A stretch of DNA of 64,000 nucleotides from Candidatus Sungbacteria bacterium RIFCSPLOWO2_01_FULL_47_32 (GTDB lineage: Bacteria; Patescibacteriota; Minisyncoccia; Sungbacterales; GWA2-42-14): positions 808 through 64,807 of the forward strand of contig MHQP01000009.1 in the NCBI GenBank assembly GCA_001820685.1. The letters run 5' to 3'. Under the pieces are notes generated by a model. That model worked only from the letters and a program-made list of their open reading frames with translations, searched no databases and had not been told where the DNA came from. The position numbers were made by a program, and so were the translations under genes. Each line of letters begins with the position of its first letter. The stretch's first letter is position 1. Shown here in pieces: positions 2,398-63,904 of the stretch.

Positions 2398-4110
2398 ATG
2401 ATACGCGAAGACATACGAAAAATCGTGCGGAATGCGGCCGAAAAAAAATTCGGCAATATTGGCGAGCCTGTTTTTACGGTTGAGGTTCCGGAAAATTCCG
2501 AACACGGCGACTACTCGACAAACATCGCGATGGCTCTTGCACGTACCATCAAAAAAAATCCGCTTGAAATTGCAGCGTTATTGACGGAAAGCTTAAAGGC
2601 TGAAAAGTTATTTTCCTCGGTCGCGGCTGCACCTCCCGGATTTATTAATTTCCGGCTGAATGAGGTAAATCTACTTTCTGAAATTCAAAAAAAGCTCAAA
2701 AACAAAAAAGCGTTCGGAAAAACTAATGTAGGCAAAGGCAAAACAGTTCTTGTCGAATACTTCCAGTTAAACATCGCAAAGCGCCCTCATGTGGGGCATC
2801 TTCGCTCTGCCGTTATTGGAGACGCCTTAAAACGGGTGCTTCTTTTGTCCGGATACAAAGCCGTTTCAGACACGCACGTGGGGGACTGGGGAACGCAGTT
2901 TGGGATTTTGCTTCTTGGCTTCAAAGAGGCCGGAATGTCCGTCAAAGACAAAAAAGTTTTGGCCGATCCATTTGGAGTACTTGAAGAGCTCTATATTAAG
3001 GAAAATGAAAAGATAGAAGCCGATTCGGACAGACGTGAGAAAGCAAAACTTGAGTTCGCAAAGCTAGAAAAAGGAGACAGAGAAAACAGAAAAATCTGGA
3101 AATGGATGGTTGATATTTCGATGAAGAATCTTGAAACATCAGCGCACCATCTCGGGCTTTTGAAGTTTGACGAACACAAAGGCGAAAGTTCATACGAAAA
3201 AGATATGCCAGGAATTGTGGCTCTCGCGTTTACAAAAAGGGTTGCTATAAAGAAAGACGGCGCTGCGATCGTTGACCTTTCGGACGAAAAACTTGACGAG
3301 GCGGTGCTTGTAAAGTCCGACGGAGCCTCAACATACCTTCTGCGCGACCTTGCGACAATTCAATACCGCGAAAAAAAGAAATATTTTAAAAACTTATATG
3401 TGGTTGATGTGCGCCAACAGCACCATTTTAGACAAGTTCATTTCGTTGCCGCGAGCCTCGGATTTAATTTTGAAGGAGAATCCCGCCTTGTTGAATTCGG
3501 CGCAATGACGCTTCCGGAAGGGAAAATGAGCACGCGCAAAGGCAACATTATTTCGCTTGAAAGTCTTTTGAAAGAGGCGGGCGAGCGGGCGCTCAAGGTC
3601 ATTAAAGAAAAAAATCCGGAATTGAAAAATATGGGGAGCGTTGCCGGAGCGGTCGGGCTTGGAGCCATAAAATATTTTGATCTTTCGCGAAACCGTAAAT
3701 CCGATATTGTATTTCGTTGGGAAGACGCACTTGCGTTTGAAGGAAATACCGGGCCGTATTTGCAATATACCCACGCGCGCCTTAAAAGCATTCTTAGGAA
3801 AGCGAAAAAAACGGTGAAGCTTCCTAAAAATATTCCGGTGTTGAGCGACTTAGAACACGAAATTCTTTCGCGTATTCTTTCGTTTGAAGAAGCTATCGAA
3901 GACTCTCTTGCGTCATATGCTCCGAACATTCTTGCGAACTACCTTCACTCGCTTGCCCAAAACGTGAATGAGTTTTATCATTCACACCCCGTTTTGAATG
4001 AACCGGATGAGGGCAAGAAAGCAGTTCGTCTGATGCTCGTTGAATCGTCTACAACCGCCTTAAAGCAAGGGCTTTGGTGTTTGGGGATTGTGGCGCCGGA
4101 AGAAATGTAG
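2398..4110 (+). CDS. argS: arginyl-tRNA synthetase
   Basis: Class I HVGH (HVGHLRSAVIGD). DALR-type anticodon-binding C-terminus. ArgS N-terminal add-on domain. 570 aa. Confidence 0.92.
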   Translation: MIREDIRKIVRNAAEKKFGNIGEPVFTVEVPENSEHGDYSTNIAMALARTIKKNPLEIAALLTESLKAEKLFSSVAAAPPGFINFRLNEVNLLSEIQKKLKNKKAFGKTNVGKGKTVLVEYFQLNIAKRPHVGHLRSAVIGDALKRVLLLSGYKAVSDTHVGDWGTQFGILLLGFKEAGMSVKDKKVLADPFGVLEELYIKENEKIEADSDRREKAKLEFAKLEKGDRENRKIWKWMVDISMKNLETSAHHLGLLKFDEHKGESSYEKDMPGIVALAFTKRVAIKKDGAAIVDLSDEKLDEAVLVKSDGASTYLLRDLATIQYREKKKYFKNLYVVDVRQQHHFRQVHFVAASLGFNFEGESRLVEFGAMTLPEGKMSTRKGNIISLESLLKEAGERALKVIKEKNPELKNMGSVAGAVGLGAIKYFDLSRNRKSDIVFRWEDALAFEGNTGPYLQYTHARLKSILRKAKKTVKLPKNIPVLSDLEHEILSRILSFEEAIEDSLASYAPNILANYLHSLAQNVNEFYHSHPVLNEPDEGKKAVRLMLVESSTTALKQGLWCLGIVAPEEM

Positions 4111-4112
4111 TC

Positions 4113-4206
4113 TCGCTCGGAATAGGACAAATTTTTAACGCCTATATTTTATATTCTGTATTGACCCCACCGCCAGCCCGATTAAAAATTTGTCCTATTT
4201 CTCGCT
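4113..4206 (+). repeat. dispersed structured repeat, copy A (arms ggacaaatttttaa / ttaaaaatttgtcc around the core CGCC..TATATTC..TTGACCCCACCGCCAGCCCGA)
   Basis: The core recurs at 16157, 35463 and 47608 (on the minus strand there). The flanking arms are inverted repeats. Copy A starts 3 nt after the argS stop codon. Confidence 0.7.
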
Positions 4207-4224
4207 TATGGCTTACTGAAGGAA

Positions 4225-4352
4225 ATAAATTTTTTCTCGCGCCTTTATTGCATATTCGGTATTGACTCCACAGCCCTTTTGCCCCTCACAAAAGCCCAGA
4301 GTTGTCCCCCTGATAACTCGTCGCGTTACGACCCCGACGAGAAAAAATTTTA
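4225..4352 (+). repeat. dispersed structured repeat, copy B (expanded variant; arms aaattttttctcg / cgacgagaaaaaattt)
   Basis: Core variant cgcctttattgcatattcggtattgactccacagccc plus a ~55 nt insert. The right arm is preceded by CCCCGA, as in the other copies. Confidence 0.55.
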
Positions 4353-4357
4353 CAGTT

Positions 4358-4400
4358 TCGCTCGGAATAGGACAAATTTTTAACGCCTTTGTTATAAATT
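4358..4400 (+). repeat. partial copy (left arm tcgctcggaataggacaaatttttaacgcc only)
   Basis: Identical to copy A's left arm over 30 nt, then diverges. Confidence 0.5.
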
Positions 4401-4415
4401 TCGAGGAGGCTATTC

Positions 4416-4478
4416 ATGGCTTCCTCTTTTTGTTATGATAGGGAAAGTTCTTCACATATCAGAGGTTTCATATGCTAA
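4416..4478 (+). CDS. possible 20-aa leader peptide / uORF (MASSFCYDRESSSHIRGFIC)
   Basis: A GAGGAGG SD lies 6 nt upstream of ATG 4416. Its stop overlaps the ATG of the downstream gene (ataTGCTAA). Confidence 0.25.
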   Translation: MASSFCYDRESSSHIRGFIC

Positions 4479-5158
4479 AAGCCCCTGTTTTTCGTTTGTT
4501 ACTAGGAACGGTGCTCATGGTATTTGTGCTCTCTTTTTTAGGAGTAACTTCCTATGTGTATTATGAGCCGCCAAAAGACGAATACACCGAATACGAGGAA
4601 CTTGTCTATGAGATGCTCTCGCCTCAGGGAGATTCGTCAGTTCCTGACTATCGCGACCTGTACCTTAAAAAGATCGCCAAGTACGAAGCGTTCATAAAAA
4701 AATATCCGAAGTCTCCCCTGGTGTCGGAAGCAAAACTCCGCATCGCGGAGCTCTACCGCGACGTTGACCGCGCGGAAATTTATACCTATCGCAAAGAAAT
4801 GTTTGACTGTGTCACGAGGGCAAATTTTGACGTAGCAACGGAAGAGTTCTGCATTGCAGATTTCTACCGCCGCTCCGGAAATCCGCGTGACCCGCTGTAT
4901 TTCGCAAAGGCGCAAAAACTTCTTGAAGAAATTGTCCGCGACTACGGACACAACCAGCGCTACGCGCTCACTGACCCAGGCCAGGGCCGTTTCGAATATA
5001 TCAACGAAGACGCGGGAGGATACGCGTTATACCTTCTTTCACAGGGGAAATCTCCCGAAGAAAAACTCAAAAATTATAGAAAAATTTTAAAAGAATACCG
5101 CGTACGGCCGGAATTCAAAAAGGTCGTTGAAGATTACGTGAGAAACTACGGAAAATAA
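4472..5158 (+). CDS. hypothetical N-terminally membrane-anchored protein (228 aa)
   Basis: N-terminal TM/signal anchor LLLGTVLMVFVLSFLGV. Helical, TPR-like body. No catalytic motif recognised. Confidence 0.55.
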   Translation: MLKAPVFRLLLGTVLMVFVLSFLGVTSYVYYEPPKDEYTEYEELVYEMLSPQGDSSVPDYRDLYLKKIAKYEAFIKKYPKSPLVSEAKLRIAELYRDVDRAEIYTYRKEMFDCVTRANFDVATEEFCIADFYRRSGNPRDPLYFAKAQKLLEEIVRDYGHNQRYALTDPGQGRFEYINEDAGGYALYLLSQGKSPEEKLKNYRKILKEYRVRPEFKKVVEDYVRNYGK

Positions 5159-5189
5159 ACGCTCCGATGAGCATCGGAGCGTTTTTTGT
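5159..5189 (+). terminator. intrinsic terminator
   Basis: Hairpin cgctccgatgagcatcggagcg followed by ttttttg. Confidence 0.6.
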
Positions 5190-9085: not shown

Positions 9086-9141
9086 ACGCTAATAAATGAG
9101 CGCGGAAGTTAGTTTTACAAGGAAGTATTTAAAAAAGAGGA

Positions 9142-9166
9142 AAGCGGATAAATCCGCTTTTTTCTT
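9142..9166 (+). terminator. intrinsic terminator after ileS
   Basis: Hairpin agcggataaatccgct followed by tttttc. Confidence 0.6.
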
Positions 9167-9186
9167 TTGTATAAAAATGCGATAAT

Positions 9187-16144: not shown

Positions 16145-16156
16145 ATGGAGAGCACT

Positions 16157-16234
16157 GTGAAAAATTTCTTAACGCCTCTATTATACTATATTTTTTTTGA
16201 CCCCATTGCCAGCCCGATTAAAAAATTTTCCACA
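16157..16234 (+). repeat. dispersed structured repeat, copy C
   Basis: gaaaaatttcttaa-CGCCtctattatactatattttttttGACCCCATTGCCAGCCCGA-ttaaaaaattttcc. Confidence 0.6.
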
Positions 16235-16281
16235 GCGCCTCCTTTTAGTATAGAAAAAAGCGCCACCGGGCGCTTTAGTAT

Positions 16282-33416: not shown

Positions 33417-34541
33417 CTACGCTTCGCGTATCATTTTTTCGAGTATGGACCTCAATTCTTCGTCGGAATAAAATTCCACAACAATTTTTCCTTTCCCCCC
33501 GTCCATTTTAACGAGAGAGACGCGCGTCCCCAAAAACTCTTCAAGCTGTCGTTGCCATTCGCGGTCTCCAAACTCAAGCCGCGTTACATCTTTTCTTTGG
33601 GGAACTCTGCGGTGCCCTAAAAGAGCCCGTGCCGCAAATTCCGCTTCGCGGACATTCAGTTTTGTCCGCGCGATCTCTTCAAGCAGGATGCGCTGTTTTG
33701 AAGCGTCTCCCGAAAGCATCAAAAGAGCCCTGGCATGCCCCTCCGAAAGCTGGCTCGCTCTGACTTGCTCCTGAATGTTGTCGGGGAGTGTCAAAAGCCG
33801 CATGCTGTTCGTAACGTATTCACGGGATTTCCCGACTTTTTCTGCAATCTCTTTTTGCGTGAGGCGGAAGTCGTCGGCAAGCTGTTTGAACGCCACCGCG
33901 CGTTCAATGGGATTTAAGTCTTCTCTTTGGACATTCTCAATGAGGGCAAGTTCAAGCTTCAGACGATCGTGGAGTTTGTCTTTTTTTATAATGATCGGAA
34001 CTTCGCGGAGTCCCGCAAGCTGTGACGCCCGCCAGCGCCGTTCTCCGGCAATAAGCTGGTAGCGGACGGCAAGGCCTCGGGAAGTTTCTTCTTCTATTTT
34101 TGTGACCAAAAGAGGCTGAAGAATTCCGTAATTTTTTATGGAATCCGCAAGAGTTTTAAGGCCTTCCTCCTCAAAGACGCGGCGTGGCTGGAAAGGGTTT
34201 GGCTCTATCTTTGAAGCTTCTATCCAAAAAATACTATCCGCTTGTTTTGAGTTTTTTGACTCTGGCTGACTCGGAACGGCATATTCATACGTTTTTTTTG
34301 CGACGACCGCGGCCGGCGGTGTTTTTATTTGGGACGGCTCGGAGGTGGCTGTTTGTATTCGTATCCCTTTATACTTCAGCAATGAAACATCTCCTGCAAG
34401 GCTAATACTATGTACCGGCTCTTCAAGATTTTCCTGGAATGCCAAAATATCGTCGGCGTGGAACCGGCTTTTTTGCTTGTTTTCGCTATTGTCTTGTGGA
34501 ATGAGGGATTCCAAACCCCGTCCGAGAGGAGCCATGTACAA
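33417..34541 (-). CDS. parB: chromosome partitioning protein ParB/Spo0J (with N-terminal extension)
   Basis: ParB box GERRWRAS. HTH (LTQKEIAEKVGKSREYVTN). C-terminal dimerisation region. Confidence 0.85.
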   Translation of the reverse strand: MYMAPLGRGLESLIPQDNSENKQKSRFHADDILAFQENLEEPVHSISLAGDVSLLKYKGIRIQTATSEPSQIKTPPAAVVAKKTYEYAVPSQPESKNSKQADSIFWIEASKIEPNPFQPRRVFEEEGLKTLADSIKNYGILQPLLVTKIEEETSRGLAVRYQLIAGERRWRASQLAGLREVPIIIKKDKLHDRLKLELALIENVQREDLNPIERAVAFKQLADDFRLTQKEIAEKVGKSREYVTNSMRLLTLPDNIQEQVRASQLSEGHARALLMLSGDASKQRILLEEIARTKLNVREAEFAARALLGHRRVPQRKDVTRLEFGDREWQRQLEEFLGTRVSLVKMDGGKGKIVVEFYSDEELRSILEKMIREA

Positions 34542-34611
34542 TAATTTAAAATTATAAATGCTGAATGCTAAATACTAACTAAAATTCTAATTTCTAAATC
34601 CTAAATTCTCA

Positions 34612-35406
34612 TTATCGGGAATATGATTTTGGGTCTGCGGAAATTTTTTCGAGCTTCAGTATCTCTTCCGCGAGCCTCCGGTACGCTTTTGCTCCGTGGC
34701 TGTACGGGTCATACTGCAGGACGGATTTTCCGAAACTGGGTGCCTCCGCCAGGCTGACATTCCGCGGAATGACGGTATCGAAGACATATCCAGGAAATTT
34801 TTGGTTTATTTCTTTTACGACCGCGCGGTGAAGCCTGGATTTTCGGTCATACATCGTAAGGAGCGCTCCCATAACTTCTATCTTTGTTTTCAGATTGCTA
34901 TTTATAAGATTAATTGTTTTTAAAAGTTCGGCAAGCCCTTCAAGCGAATAATATTCGCATTGAGCCGGGATGATGACTTTATGCGCGGCGGTCAGGGCAT
35001 TTAGTGTAAGCAGTCCGAGTGAAGGAGGAGAATCGATAACGATATAATCGTAGTCGTCGGCAAGCTCTTTTAAGGCATCGCGGAGCCTGAATTCCCTTTT
35101 TTTCTCGGAGACGAGCTCTATGGACGCTCCCGCAAGGTCGCCCGCCGCAGGAAGCACGTCAAGGCCGAGGATTTTCGTTCGTTTTATTGCAAGCTTTGTG
35201 TCTTTCGGATTTATCAGGGCGTGATAGACGGTCTGTTTAAGGGTTTTTGAGGAGATGCCCGCTCCCGATGTCGCGTTCCCTTGCGGGTCGATATCAACCA
35301 AAAGCACCCGCTTTCCGAATGCCCGGAGATATGCCGCGGTGTTGACTGCGGTCGTTGTTTTTCCTACACCGCCCTTTTGATTGCAAAATGTGATGATTCT
35401 TGTCAT
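34612..35406 (-). CDS. parA: chromosome partitioning ATPase ParA/Soj
   Basis: Deviant Walker A NQKGGVGKTT. Adjacent to parB. Met 6 of the track ORF. Confidence 0.88.
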   Translation of the reverse strand: MTRIITFCNQKGGVGKTTTAVNTAAYLRAFGKRVLLVDIDPQGNATSGAGISSKTLKQTVYHALINPKDTKLAIKRTKILGLDVLPAAGDLAGASIELVSEKKREFRLRDALKELADDYDYIVIDSPPSLGLLTLNALTAAHKVIIPAQCEYYSLEGLAELLKTINLINSNLKTKIEVMGALLTMYDRKSRLHRAVVKEINQKFPGYVFDTVIPRNVSLAEAPSFGKSVLQYDPYSHGAKAYRRLAEEILKLEKISADPKSYSR

Positions 35407-35462
35407 AAAAGACCTTCTCATTATACTCGATTTTAAGCCAATTTACAAGGGATGCTCGAAAC

Positions 35463-35546
35463 GTAATAAATTTTTAACGCCTTTATTGTATATTCTTTGC
35501 TGATCCCACCGCCAGCCCGATTAAAAATTTATTCCGTTTCTCGCTT
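35463..35546 (+). repeat. dispersed structured repeat, copy D
   Basis: aataaatttttaa-CGCCTTTATTGTATATTCTTTGCTGATCCCACCGCCAGCCCGA-ttaaaaatttatt. About 115 bp upstream of the tRNA-Leu. Confidence 0.65.
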
Positions 35547-35660
35547 AAACATTCCGATAGGAAATGAGCGTTTTTGAGCCAATCATGCCTCGCTTAGGGA
35601 TTCCTAAAGGAAAGATTTGAAATTTGCTGTATTTTATGGTAAATTTGTCTTGAAATATAC

Positions 35661-35743
35661 GGGCGAGTGGCGGAATGGCAGACGCAATGGACTCAAAATC
35701 CATCGGGGGCAACCCCATGAGAGTTCGACTCTCTCCTCGCCCA
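35661..35743 (+). tRNA. tRNA-Leu (anticodon CAA), type II with long variable arm; CCA not encoded
   Basis: Folded by hand. Acceptor gggcgag/ctcgccc. Anticodon stem atgga/tccat with loop cuCAAaa. Variable arm cgggggcaaccccat. T-arm gagag-ttcgact-ctctc. Discriminator A. Confidence 0.8.
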
Positions 35744-46509: not shown

Positions 46510-46547
46510 ATATACTTTTTATCATAAATCAGCCGTGAAGTAAATTA

Positions 46548-46575
46548 AAAAACGCCCCGATGACCGTCGGGGCGG
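46548..46575 (-). terminator. intrinsic terminator
   Basis: cgccccgacggtcatcggggcg followed by tttttt on the minus strand. Confidence 0.55.
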
Positions 46576-46576
46576 T

Positions 46577-46996
46577 TTAGGAGAAGCTATGGCGCCTCAC
46601 CAGGCGTTTTTTAATTTTCTTCGTTGTTTCCTTTGAAAGCGAGCGGGATGCCGGGTGTGGCATCAATACGATCGGCACGCCGGGAACGAGTTTACGGAGT
46701 GATTCTTTGGCTACCGCACCGCATACAAGAATGATATTCTGATGGACAGCACGAATCCTTCTCTTTATGTGTGCGGCATCCGGAGGAAAGACTCCGCTCG
46801 GCATGTCCGCCAAAAGAGGGTTTGCGTTGGCGAAACGAATTCGATAAAGCCGGAGAGGTAAAACTTCGCGAAAGAGGCATGTTCCGGTTCGTGACGCCCG
46901 GAACTCTTTTCGCCAAACGGCGGGATGCCATTTTTGCAGCTTCCCCCGCTTCCACGGACACTGGAGAACGACAAGGAGAACTGGCTGTGTGCCCAT
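46577..46996 (-). CDS. hypothetical; possible degenerate uracil-DNA-glycosylase-superfamily fold
   Basis: NIILVCGAVAKESL ... VPIVLMPHPASRS resembles the family-4 UDG C-terminal motifs (..LG..A...L ... HPS/HPA). The GEAPG catalytic motif is not recognisable. Confidence 0.35.
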   Translation of the reverse strand: MGTQPVLLVVLQCPWKRGKLQKWHPAVWRKEFRASRTGTCLFREVLPLRLYRIRFANANPLLADMPSGVFPPDAAHIKRRIRAVHQNIILVCGAVAKESLRKLVPGVPIVLMPHPASRSLSKETTKKIKKRLVRRHSFS

Positions 46997-47495: not shown

Positions 47496-47607
47496 ATAAG
47501 ACTGTGTGAGCAAAAATAGTTTTCTGAAAACGCTCACTCGACGAGTTTGCGTGGTTTATCCAGCAACGTGGCTGTTTTTCCTTAAGTAAACCCTCAAAGC
47601 GAAGCTG

Positions 47608-47679
47608 GCAGATTTTTCTTCGTCGGGCTGGCGGTGGGGTCAAACAAGTATATACAGTAAAGGCGCGAAGAAAAATCTG
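47608..47679 (-). repeat. dispersed structured repeat, copy E (minus orientation)
   Basis: Reverse complement reads cagatttttcttcg-CGCCTTTACTGTATATACTTGTTTGACCCCACCGCCAGCCCGA-cgaagaaaaatctg. Starts immediately after the dcd stop codon. Confidence 0.7.
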
Positions 47680-48357
47680 CTAGCGAGCGACCTCCCAATC
47701 CTTGTGCATCTGCGGAATCATCATGTGGGGATTCCACGACGCCTTTACTTCTTCAATATCCTGCGAGCGCTGGTATTTTCCTCCTTCTCCGACATAGTCC
47801 ACCGTCGCTGCTTTTAGGGGCTCAACCTCATAGAACACCATTTGGGCGATTCTTCTCCCGACAACAAGCGGGATTGTAAAATTCTGCGAATTATTCGTTA
47901 TCTCCATCGTCCATTTGTTGAAATATCCGACATCTCCCCACCCGGCGTCTTTGCAAACCTCAATAAAATTTCTTCCAAGAGAGGAGCGGGCGTACATTTT
48001 TCCTACGCAAATATCGCGCCCTCCGATGAATTCTTGGGTATGTCCCAAAACGGTCTCTCCCGGTTTCAATAAAATAACTTGTTCTGTCGGTTTGATATTT
48101 TTCAGGGCGACACCGGTCCTTTTTGTAACGTCAGACGCGGTTTCCGCCTCAAAAGGGCCCGTCCACACCCGTTTGGTTGAGTCTTCGTCGTAGATGTTAT
48201 GGAGCGTAGCACCTCCTTCGGGCGACCCCTCGCGCCAAAACCACTCGCCGAGCGTTACGTCATAGCTCGTCGTTTTGAGTTTCCGGTCATCAAAAGGCTC
48301 TATAACGATAGTCCCTCTCTTCATGTGCCGGACGATCGCGTCGCGTGAAAGTAGCAT
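47680..48357 (-). CDS. dcd: dCTP deaminase family protein (long form)
   Basis: MLLSRDAIVRHMKRGTIVIEPF....SYDVTLG. Confidence 0.8.
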   Translation of the reverse strand: MLLSRDAIVRHMKRGTIVIEPFDDRKLKTTSYDVTLGEWFWREGSPEGGATLHNIYDEDSTKRVWTGPFEAETASDVTKRTGVALKNIKPTEQVILLKPGETVLGHTQEFIGGRDICVGKMYARSSLGRNFIEVCKDAGWGDVGYFNKWTMEITNNSQNFTIPLVVGRRIAQMVFYEVEPLKAATVDYVGEGGKYQRSQDIEEVKASWNPHMMIPQMHKDWEVAR

Positions 48358-62902: not shown

Positions 62903-63778
62903 CTATGAAATTTTCGTCCACTGCTCGTTTTCCATGCGTTTTACAAGTTTTTTGAGCTCAAGCATGGCAAGTGTTGAAAGAATTTGCGGTGTTGATAAAC
63001 CTGCTTTCAACTTCAGTTCCGCGACCGTGGACGGAGACGCTTCAAGGATTTCAAAAATCGTTTTTTCCTCTCCTTCGAGTGCCTTTTTTTGTTCAATTTT
63101 TCGCGCGGCCGGAAGGTGCTGGAGAGAGAGTTCTTCCAGAATGTCCTCGGCTGACGTTATCGCTTTCGCCCCTCTTTTGATGAGGCCATTTGGACCGGCG
63201 GACTCTTTTGAAAAAATTGAGCCTGGCAGGGCAAATACTTCACGGTCGTGTTCCAAAGCAAATCGTGCGGTAATTAAAGCGCCGGACCTTTCTTTTGCTT
63301 CGATGACGACAACCCCGAGCGAGAGACCCGAAACAATTCTGTTTCGTTCAGGGAAATGGTGCCATAATGGAGGAGTTCCTGCGGGGTATTCCGAAAGAAT
63401 GGCTCCTCCTTTGGTTATGATCTCATCGGCAAGATTTTTATTCTCTCTGGGGAAAATTGACGGCGCGTCAATTCCGGAACCGAGGACCGCAATAGTGCGA
63501 AGGCCGGATTTGAGCGCGGCTTTATGAGCGACGGTATCAATTCCTGACGCAAGTCCGCTTACTATCGTAAGTCCGGCAATTTCCGAAAGCTCGCGCACGA
63601 GTCTTTCGGTTGCTTCAACGCCGTAGCGGGTCGGTTTTCGGGTTCCAACAATTGCAAGGCATTGTTCTTCGGTCTTGAGCGTCCCGCGGACATAGAGAAC
63701 TTCGGGAGACGCGTGGATCTCGTGTAAACGCTTTGGGAAGACCGAATCGGTTTTTTGTATGACACGCATATCAGACAT
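62903..63778 (-). CDS. dprA: DNA processing protein DprA/Smf
   Basis: Rossmann-like CLAIVGTRKPTRYG...SGLASGIDTVAHKAAL...GVVVIEAKERSGALITA. C-terminal winged-helix-like tail. Met 19 of the track ORF. Confidence 0.85.
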   Translation of the reverse strand: MSDMRVIQKTDSVFPKRLHEIHASPEVLYVRGTLKTEEQCLAIVGTRKPTRYGVEATERLVRELSEIAGLTIVSGLASGIDTVAHKAALKSGLRTIAVLGSGIDAPSIFPRENKNLADEIITKGGAILSEYPAGTPPLWHHFPERNRIVSGLSLGVVVIEAKERSGALITARFALEHDREVFALPGSIFSKESAGPNGLIKRGAKAITSAEDILEELSLQHLPAARKIEQKKALEGEEKTIFEILEASPSTVAELKLKAGLSTPQILSTLAMLELKKLVKRMENEQWTKIS

Positions 63779-63904
63779 GAGGACACAATATAATAGAAAG
63801 AAATAATTTGGCAAGAGTGAGCGCCACCACATCTTGTGTGTTTTTCCATTTTATGGTACTTATTGCATCAAGTACATTGAAAATATATTGAGAGAATGGG
63901 CGCC

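Follow-up and report, generated by a model that had tools for sequence, protein, structure and literature searches.

A putative family of small mobile palindromic elements with a conserved loop and freely varying stems in Patescibacteria

Introduction

Directly downstream of argS in a Sungbacteria genome lies a hairpin-forming repeat, found again elsewhere on the same contig, in which a conserved core is enclosed by inverted-repeat arms that differ between copies yet remain complementary within each of them. The question raised by this locus is what kind of element would combine a fixed interior with free ends, in Patescibacteria, whose tiny genomes are under strong reduction. The original prediction, made from the sequence alone, favoured a structured RNA or a DNA cruciform over a MITE defined by terminal inverted repeats. 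The window analysed here is the whole stretch of 64,000 nucleotides of Candidatus Sungbacteria bacterium RIFCSPLOWO2_01_FULL_47_32 (contig MHQP01000009.1), with position 1 as its first letter; the arginyl-tRNA synthetase that it encodes matches the protein of this organism at 100% identity. With moderate confidence, we take the repeat to represent a hitherto undescribed family of small palindromic elements, mobile but non-autonomous, in Patescibacteria (Sungbacteria, Harrisonbacteria, Terrybacteria and relatives), comparable to REP and RPE repeats and recognised through the core.

Copies in the window and their neighbours

The window contains four canonical copies, a variant whose core is interrupted by a 59-nt insertion, and a fragment that corresponds to a left half, which bears out the five to six copies sharing a CGCC core reported initially. 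The 21-mer TTGACCCCACCGCCAGCCCGA, sought with at most three mismatches, matched at 4161, 16197 and 35500 on the plus strand and at 47623 on the minus strand, with no match in 100 dinucleotide shuffles of the window, and a covariance model (R1) built from 29 copies retrieved five full copies at 38 to 80 bits (E 1e-5 to 1e-14), the next-best match having an E-value of 0.3. The features are as follows.

4113 to 4206, plus strand: copy 1, directly after the argS stop (model span 4115-4205, 80.3 bits; folding z-score -5.6); outer motif TCTCGCTCGG 4111-4120, left arm 4119-4138, core 4139-4181 (CGCC...TTGACCCCACCGCCAGCCCGA), right arm 4182-4201, outer TCGCT 4202-4206
4202 to 4229, plus strand: tail after copy 1, the conserved 3' tail of the Sungbacteria subfamily, TCGCTTATGGCTTACTGAAGGAAATAAA
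4227 to 4351, plus strand: copy 2, variant (model span 4216-4361, 38.2 bits, E 9e-6; z-score -5.9); left arm 4227-4239, 5' core from 4240, TTGACTCCACAGCC at 4262-4275, 59-nt insertion 4276-4334, CGA 4335-4337, right arm 4338-4351
4356 to 4399, plus strand: partial copy, consisting of the outer motif, left arm, CGCC and start of the A/T-rich segment
16147 to 16242, plus strand: copy 3, antisense to both of its minus-strand neighbours (model span 16149-16241, 68.8 bits); left arm 16147-16172, core 16173-16217 (3' core TTGACCCCATTGCCAGCCCGA), right arm 16218-16242
35454 to 35546, plus strand: copy 4, between parA (minus strand) and tRNA-Leu (model span 35454-35544, 77.6 bits); outer GCTC 35454-35457, arms 35458-35477 and 35521-35540, core 35478-35520, outer TCGCTT 35541-35546
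35590 to 35613, plus strand: solo tail motif TCGCTTAGGGATTCCTAAAGGAAA, with no hairpin beside it
47577 to 47689, minus strand: copy 5, overlapping the dcd stop (model span 47599-47689, 77.2 bits); outer GCTCGC 47683-47688, arms 47666-47684 and 47604-47622, core 47623-47665, tail TTCGCTTTGAGGGTTTACTTAAGGAAA extending down to about 47577

Within each copy the arms were 85-100% complementary and differed from those of the other copies, so that the right arm is indeed the reverse complement of that copy's own left arm; they are longer than the 13-15 nt first proposed, i.e. 18-26 nt (the arm match of copy 1 was scored as 18 nt at 100%). Folding z-scores ranged from -2.7 to -5.6 for the four canonical copies, where a long stem closes a loop of about 40-45 nt, and reached -5.9 for variant copy 2 (4225-4352), which closes a larger loop with three small hairpins. 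Copy 2 retains the 5' core and TTGACTCCACAGCC, its 59 extra nucleotides sitting before the final CGA, inside the 3' core; the three hairpins formed by this insertion (4276-4334) pair CUUUUG with CAAAAG, GAGUUGUC with GAUAACUC and GUCG with CGAC. The left end of the partial copy (4356-4399) is identical to that of copy 1 (TTCGCTCGGAATAGGACAAATTTTTAACGCC) and then diverges, the 3' core and right arm being missing.

The conserved unit of the Sungbacteria copies reaches past the hairpin on both sides, as GCTCGC to its left and TTCGCTT..GG..TTACT.AAGGAAA to its right. The tail of copy 1 is also kept in another Sungbacteria MAG (L052), and the copies in L070, L074 and L122, like those at 35541 and 47603 in the window, are followed by similar tails. 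The solo tail at 35590-35613 (TCGCTT..GG..CT.AAGGAAA) stands 45 nt past the tail of copy 4 and may be the remnant of a lost copy.

Two copies had been described as starting 0-3 nt after a same-strand stop codon. This holds for argS, whose stop (4108-4110) lies 2-3 nt before copy 1; the stop of dcd (47680-47682), by contrast, lies inside the left end of copy 5, so that the element itself supplies the TAG. Homologues of dcd end in ...DWEV plus two or three residues, and the right flank of copy 5 would restore an end ...EVASL*, matching their x-S-x C-termini, which hints that insertion of copy 5 may have replaced the last codons of dcd; relatives at 77-83% identity are too diverged downstream for an empty site to be aligned. 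The tRNA-Leu gene starts at 35661, about 115 nt beyond copy 4 (35454-35544), as first noted. It is adjoined, like copy 4, by parB-parA (33417-35421), a neighbourhood that may lie near the replication origin. A dprA competence gene is found at the end of the window (62903-63832). No transposase, integrase, reverse transcriptase or HUH/Y1 gene was found among the 59 ORFs of the 64-kb window, and no gene class was associated with the copies.

Element density in the window is about one per 13 kb. We regard it as extremely improbable that the repeat is a DNA site serving another process, whether recombination of the integron attC type, DNA uptake or inversion of a switch. Like attC, it is a folded hairpin whose central part varies, its inverted repeats enclose an asymmetric segment, and Patescibacteria are thought to depend on DNA uptake, with DprA encoded in the window. 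However, RYYYAAC/GTTRRRY boxes (alignment A1), a cassette array and an integrase are all missing, the neighbours are housekeeping genes, the density is far below that of uptake signals, and orientation was the same in all independent assemblies of the same locus.

Distribution and layout of the family

Further copies in related MAGs, the search for which had been suggested as a check, were indeed numerous, with about 65 distinct copies overall. A core-pattern scan of species-representative genomes revealed the core with its arms in 11 species-level Patescibacteria MAGs, and one further MAG carrying the element was reached through argS, giving at least 12 other Patescibacteria MAGs, among them Harrisonbacteria, Terrybacteria, Sungiibacteriota and bins labelled "Patescibacteria group"; a metagenome scan contributed about 50 more copies or contigs. 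Copies from the same genome are not independent, so these counts overstate the statistical weight. Core-pattern matches in high-G+C genomes were dismissed as chance occurrences inside genes, and a single chance match in viral contigs led us to discard a phage origin; 15-16-nt pieces of the long-form domain, used in two further scans, likewise matched by chance only. A literature search returned no mention of the core sequence or of a palindromic repeat in these lineages.

Layout is constant throughout: left arm, CGCC-TYYAT, an A/T-rich stretch, an optional inner module, (A/T)A-TGAYCCCAYYGCCAGCCCGA and right arm. The arms measure 12-33 nt, mostly 20-30, with 90-100% Watson-Crick pairing, and enclose an asymmetric and nearly invariant core of about 45 nt, of which a 20-mer is nearly invariant across several candidate phyla-level lineages. 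The inner module takes four forms: it is absent, or a short G+C-rich hairpin, or a multi-stem domain of about 140 nt, or a complete second copy in reverse (L042). The short forms, entirely devoid of the long domain, are the commonest, while the long form totals about 230 nt with its inner domain of about 140 nt folding as a three-way junction. Inner length in confirmed copies is at most 171 nt, longer values being chance matches or misassigned arms. Among about 120 loci examined, no autonomous relative carrying an ORF and no parent insertion sequence was found. In one locus (L021), the str operon is bracketed by two element copies in opposite orientations and contains a 132-residue ORF (2819-3217) between rpsG and fusA.

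Several simpler identities were considered and rejected. An intrinsic (Rho-independent) terminator is a short G+C-rich stem followed by a U tract; the element instead has A/T-rich stems of 20-30 bp that close a loop of about 45 nt, and it lacks a T tract on its 3' side. A leader peptide (ATG/TTG-ATC-CCA-CCG...) was set aside since neither L052 nor the nested copy of L042 has the start codon and no ribosome-binding site is present. An ORF running across copies was also dismissed: the two plus-strand frames without the core's built-in TGA were stop-free in only 42-47% of 57 short copies, and the third, with this TGA, was never open. A G-quadruplex or i-motif in the core is incompatible with C>T variants that break the tracts, and likenesses of the core to 5S rRNA, the 16S 3' end, tRNA 3' halves, T-box and twister received no Rfam support. 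ARAGORN found nothing that would make the long form a tRNA or tmRNA. Insertion into pre-existing hairpins was likewise rejected, no empty A/T-rich palindromes of this kind being present in the window.

Stem pairing and strand-specific folding

Pairing of the arms, as opposed to their sequence, was clearly conserved. In an alignment of 60 copies, 91.9% of stem cells were paired, versus 49.9% after shuffling and at most 48% with a slid partner; both sides changed in 19 of the 21 pairs, double changes amounted to 531 cells versus 163±11 in shuffles, and the covariation score was 0.96 versus 0.19. Selection for a stem, proposed at the outset from compensatory variation around a fixed core, is thus well founded, but a pure RNA stem is not: G-U pairs made up only about 2% of arm cells, and the arms therefore look like a Watson-Crick DNA inverted repeat and not like a wobble-tolerant RNA helix. 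Arms are unrelated between subfamilies, except for a T-run/A-run a few bases from the core, and their outer ends are weakly conserved (RAA...TTY).

The consensus of the long inner domain, from nine sequences, comprises 52 pairs, 24 of them with compensatory changes, and 22 G-U cells were counted versus 6 A-C cells, one G-U being kept in 7 of the 9 sequences; this excess indicates single-stranded folding of the plus strand, as RNA or DNA. No strand signal came from the small inner hairpins, whose folding energies were equal on both strands. In the loop, about 30 conserved nucleotides have no pairing partner inside the element, and both loop strands are C-rich.

Such a fold invites comparison with small ribozymes and riboswitches, in which a conserved core likewise lies between a variable closing P1 and an optional, variable P2, and the copies might then be small RNAs that act independently, or a new type of RNA that cleaves itself or has another catalytic activity; the active centre would lie in the internal loop, and the long form would be the full version. 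The covarying three-way junction of the long form, about 230 nt in length, and the lack of an Rfam match, which would make this a new class, are in line with this proposal. The conserved loop nucleotides, unpaired within the element and C-rich on both strands, speak against it, as do the lack of a conserved promoter or terminator flanking the copies, the embedding of many copies in operons or ORFs, and the predominance of short forms that lack the long domain. We therefore hold it to be distinctly unlikely. That the repeat belongs to no Rfam family was confirmed: a search with the Rfam 15 covariance models matched only the tRNA-Leu in the window, gave no match in seven loci carrying long forms, and at E<=10 returned nothing on 4090-4420 of the window or on 3340-3640 of L001.

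Position, orientation and constraint

Between co-directional genes, 31 copies were sense and 10 antisense; eight further copies lay between convergent genes and four between divergent ones. The hairpin of sense copies starts a median of about 10 nt past the upstream stop codon (about 20 nt for antisense copies), and this near-stop placement holds even where the spacer offered several hundred bases. Transcription into 3' UTRs, as originally envisaged, is thus common but, given the antisense copies, not obligatory, and the sense bias could reflect the direction of transcription or replication.

The orthologue of copy 1 also appears to be constrained. Copy 1 with its tail was 86.8% identical between the window and L052, versus 78.8% for the last 1400 nt of argS, in a comparison of a single pair of Sungbacteria genomes, and the sole arm substitution was compensated (an A>G / T>C pair). 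This speaks for selective maintenance of at least some copies, or for a structure that maintains itself.

These observations are at the heart of the main rival explanation, possible though rather unlikely in our judgment, according to which the repeat would be a structured RNA of the host that acts in cis, between cistrons or at the 3' ends of mRNAs, stabilising the message, marking processing sites or sensing terminating ribosomes, its C-rich loop binding a conserved protein or RNA and its spread being secondary. Placement about 10 nt past stops with a 31:10 sense bias, an orthologous copy better conserved than argS with its stem change compensated, and an inner domain that folds strand-specifically, with G-U well above A-C, are all in line with it. 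Ordinary intrinsic terminators with a G+C-rich stem and a T run are moreover found elsewhere in the window (5154-5187, 9130-9171, 16255-16275 and 46537-46622, one back-to-back pair among them), so the genome does not depend on the repeat for termination and the element would be something additional. By contrast, one in four of the copies between co-directional genes runs antisense, divergent promoter regions hold four copies, some copies are read through in frame inside coding sequences, the stems are nearly devoid of G-U pairs, no gene class is tied to the copies, and a related genome lacks the element around syntenic genes. A function at mRNA 3' ends and mobility are not mutually exclusive, and conservation of the orthologue together with placement at stop codons could equally mean host function instead of selfish spread.

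Signs of mobility

Several comparative patterns point to an element that moves. The Sungbacteria MAG that carries the orthologue of copy 1 (L052, ArgS 82% identical) lacks copy 2 at the same site, and in a more distant Sungbacteria genome no copy was found in 21 kb of syntenic DNA around argS; no strain polymorphism was seen at the argS locus, the spacing being the same in nine assemblies. Whole arms were common to five Terrybacteria copies and to four REEB69 copies with unrelated flanks, and therefore the arms belong to the copied unit. In L042 (2311-2501), a complete reverse second element is nested exactly at the position of the optional inner hairpin of other copies; the copy in L081 is truncated at its 5' end, and the arms of L076 have decayed.

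Two of the approximately 65 copies are intragenic. An in-frame, stop-free copy lies in a linker of LeuRS (L096), adding about 29 residues compared with none in seven homologues, and another lies in frame between the helicase motifs of a PcrA/UvrD-type helicase (L006), where residues 80-112 (33 residues) replace residues 85-88 of PcrA (4 residues). Both insertions read RASI(Y/D)KSNNDPTASPR. In another LeuRS homologue (P0242), this linker (columns 250-270 of alignment A6) holds a different insertion, about 18 residues long and including SPVASSSSRNDLIPQIA, which may be another decayed insertion.

From these patterns we infer that the element is mobile; the sites compared included no filled and empty pair similar enough to show the exact boundaries of an insertion. 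As regards the initial choice between a structured RNA or cruciform and a MITE, the part that excluded a classical MITE with terminal inverted repeats and target-site duplications stood (see below), but a structured RNA that is not mobile is not supported, in view of the bursts of copies sharing arms, presence and absence at orthologous sites, nesting and truncation, and the in-frame insertions in leuS and in the pcrA/uvrD-like gene. Speaking against mobility, the extreme conservation of the 20-mer across families is unusual for REP-like repeats.

Flanking repeats and the relationship to MITEs

With a size of 90-230 bp, terminal inverted repeats, an intergenic location and weakly conserved outer arm ends, the element could be taken for a classical MITE, i.e. 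a deletion derivative of a DDE insertion sequence, mobilised via its terminal inverted repeats and duplicating its target sites. One subfamily is even flanked by direct GCTCGC repeats that look like a 6-bp duplication. Flanking direct repeats of at least 4 nt were found in 12.7% of copies versus 7.6% in cross-pairings, and all strong cases (the 6-nt GCTCGC) fell in this one subfamily of Terry- and Sungbacteria, whose members always have GCTCGC at the left end and (GC)TTCGCT at the right. Since this motif does not change between unrelated sites and recurs in genomes that are unrelated, it probably belongs to the subfamily's element and is not a duplication; GAGGTCGCTCGC, for instance, was found at the end of dcd as well as next to an IS30, in non-coding DNA. 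A sequence-specific duplication is a less likely alternative reading.

Across the family, neither a general target-site duplication nor a conserved terminal repeat was found, most copies being devoid of any duplication. In addition, arms unrelated between subfamilies around an invariant interior are the reverse of what a MITE would be expected to show, and no parent insertion sequence was found among the loci examined. The flank check thus upholds the initial argument against a MITE defined by its terminal inverted repeats, an origin that we now consider very improbable. A complete IS30-family insertion sequence with 25-nt inverted repeats (L086, 460-1526) ends about 50 nt before an element copy; it was rejected as the parent, its own inverted repeats lying elsewhere and its ends being unrelated to those of the element.

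Proposed mechanism and significance

From a mechanistic point of view, a mobile palindromic element of this type may be pictured as follows. The copied unit is the hairpin, i.e. two Watson-Crick arms around the asymmetric and nearly invariant core, whose centre accepts an optional module (nothing, a small hairpin, the three-way junction of about 140 nt or a reverse copy). It would be recognised and moved in trans via the core sequence, folded back as a single plus strand, of DNA or RNA. Only the pairing of the arms would matter, not their sequence, which would explain why they turn over freely yet stay complementary. Copies would survive mainly just downstream of stop codons, where a hairpin may be harmless or even useful, for example as an mRNA 3'-end structure, and such usefulness would account for purifying selection on the orthologous copy. 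It is unlikely, although slightly less so than an independent catalytic RNA, that the element is instead a mobile structured RNA module, in which the loop and three-way junction form the active centre of a novel system, catalytic or RNA-templated, and new copies regenerate their arms by fold-back copying of one arm; this would explain perfect Watson-Crick, nearly G-U-free stems of arbitrary sequence.

Whichever factor recognises it, the element reverses the usual logic of bacterial palindromic repeats by conserving its loop and leaving its stem free. It can also carry a covarying, RNA-like domain absent from Rfam, and can be tolerated inside essential genes. Were the recognising factor identified, this would bring to light a new mechanism of mobilisation or else a conserved activity, peculiar to Patescibacteria, that binds RNA or DNA. 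The element also breaks gene calls, since mechanically called ORFs run into it and the dcd stop codon is supplied by it, and it offers a useful metagenome marker for these lineages.

Comparison with known repeat systems

Four known systems share traits with the mobile hairpins proposed here. Integron attC sites, like this element, fold as single strands, keep pairing over sequence and bear a variable terminal structure of very different lengths, but their conserved boxes (R''/R') lie at the stem base, and here conservation is found in the internal loop, with neither cassettes nor IntI. ERIC and the Correia/NEMIS MITEs are likewise imperfect palindromes of 100-150 bp, transcribed in operons, with size variants due to internal insertions and a distribution across related genera; they differ by their conserved terminal repeats and, in Correia, by a TA duplication, neither of which is found here.

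REP and REPIN sequences are mobilised by RAYT, an HUH transposase similar to those of IS200/IS605. The likeness lies in extragenic hairpins at gene 3' ends, often within about 15 nt of stops, in the lack of target-site duplications, in vertical inheritance with occasional bursts and in a presumed action as folded single strands. In REP and REPIN, however, the stem is conserved and the loop variable, which is the reverse of the present arrangement, and no RAYT-like gene was found in the window or next to any copy.

Rickettsia palindromic elements (RPE) appear nearest of all in behaviour, above REP/REPIN and ERIC. To our knowledge, neither a transposase nor a mechanism has been described for them. 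They differ from the present element in lineage, in being defined as families by overall sequence where an invariant loop core with free stems is seen here, and in the optional structured inner domain that we found in Patescibacteria. Both are nevertheless small palindromic repeats of reduced genomes, found between genes and in frame within housekeeping genes, here those for LeuRS and a PcrA/UvrD-like helicase. RPE are also inserted in frame, without stops, into genes (PMC10969869), and in-frame, stop-free copies within ORFs, the mark of membership among RPE, were found here as well, a likeness that places the element in the same behavioural class and claims no sequence relationship.
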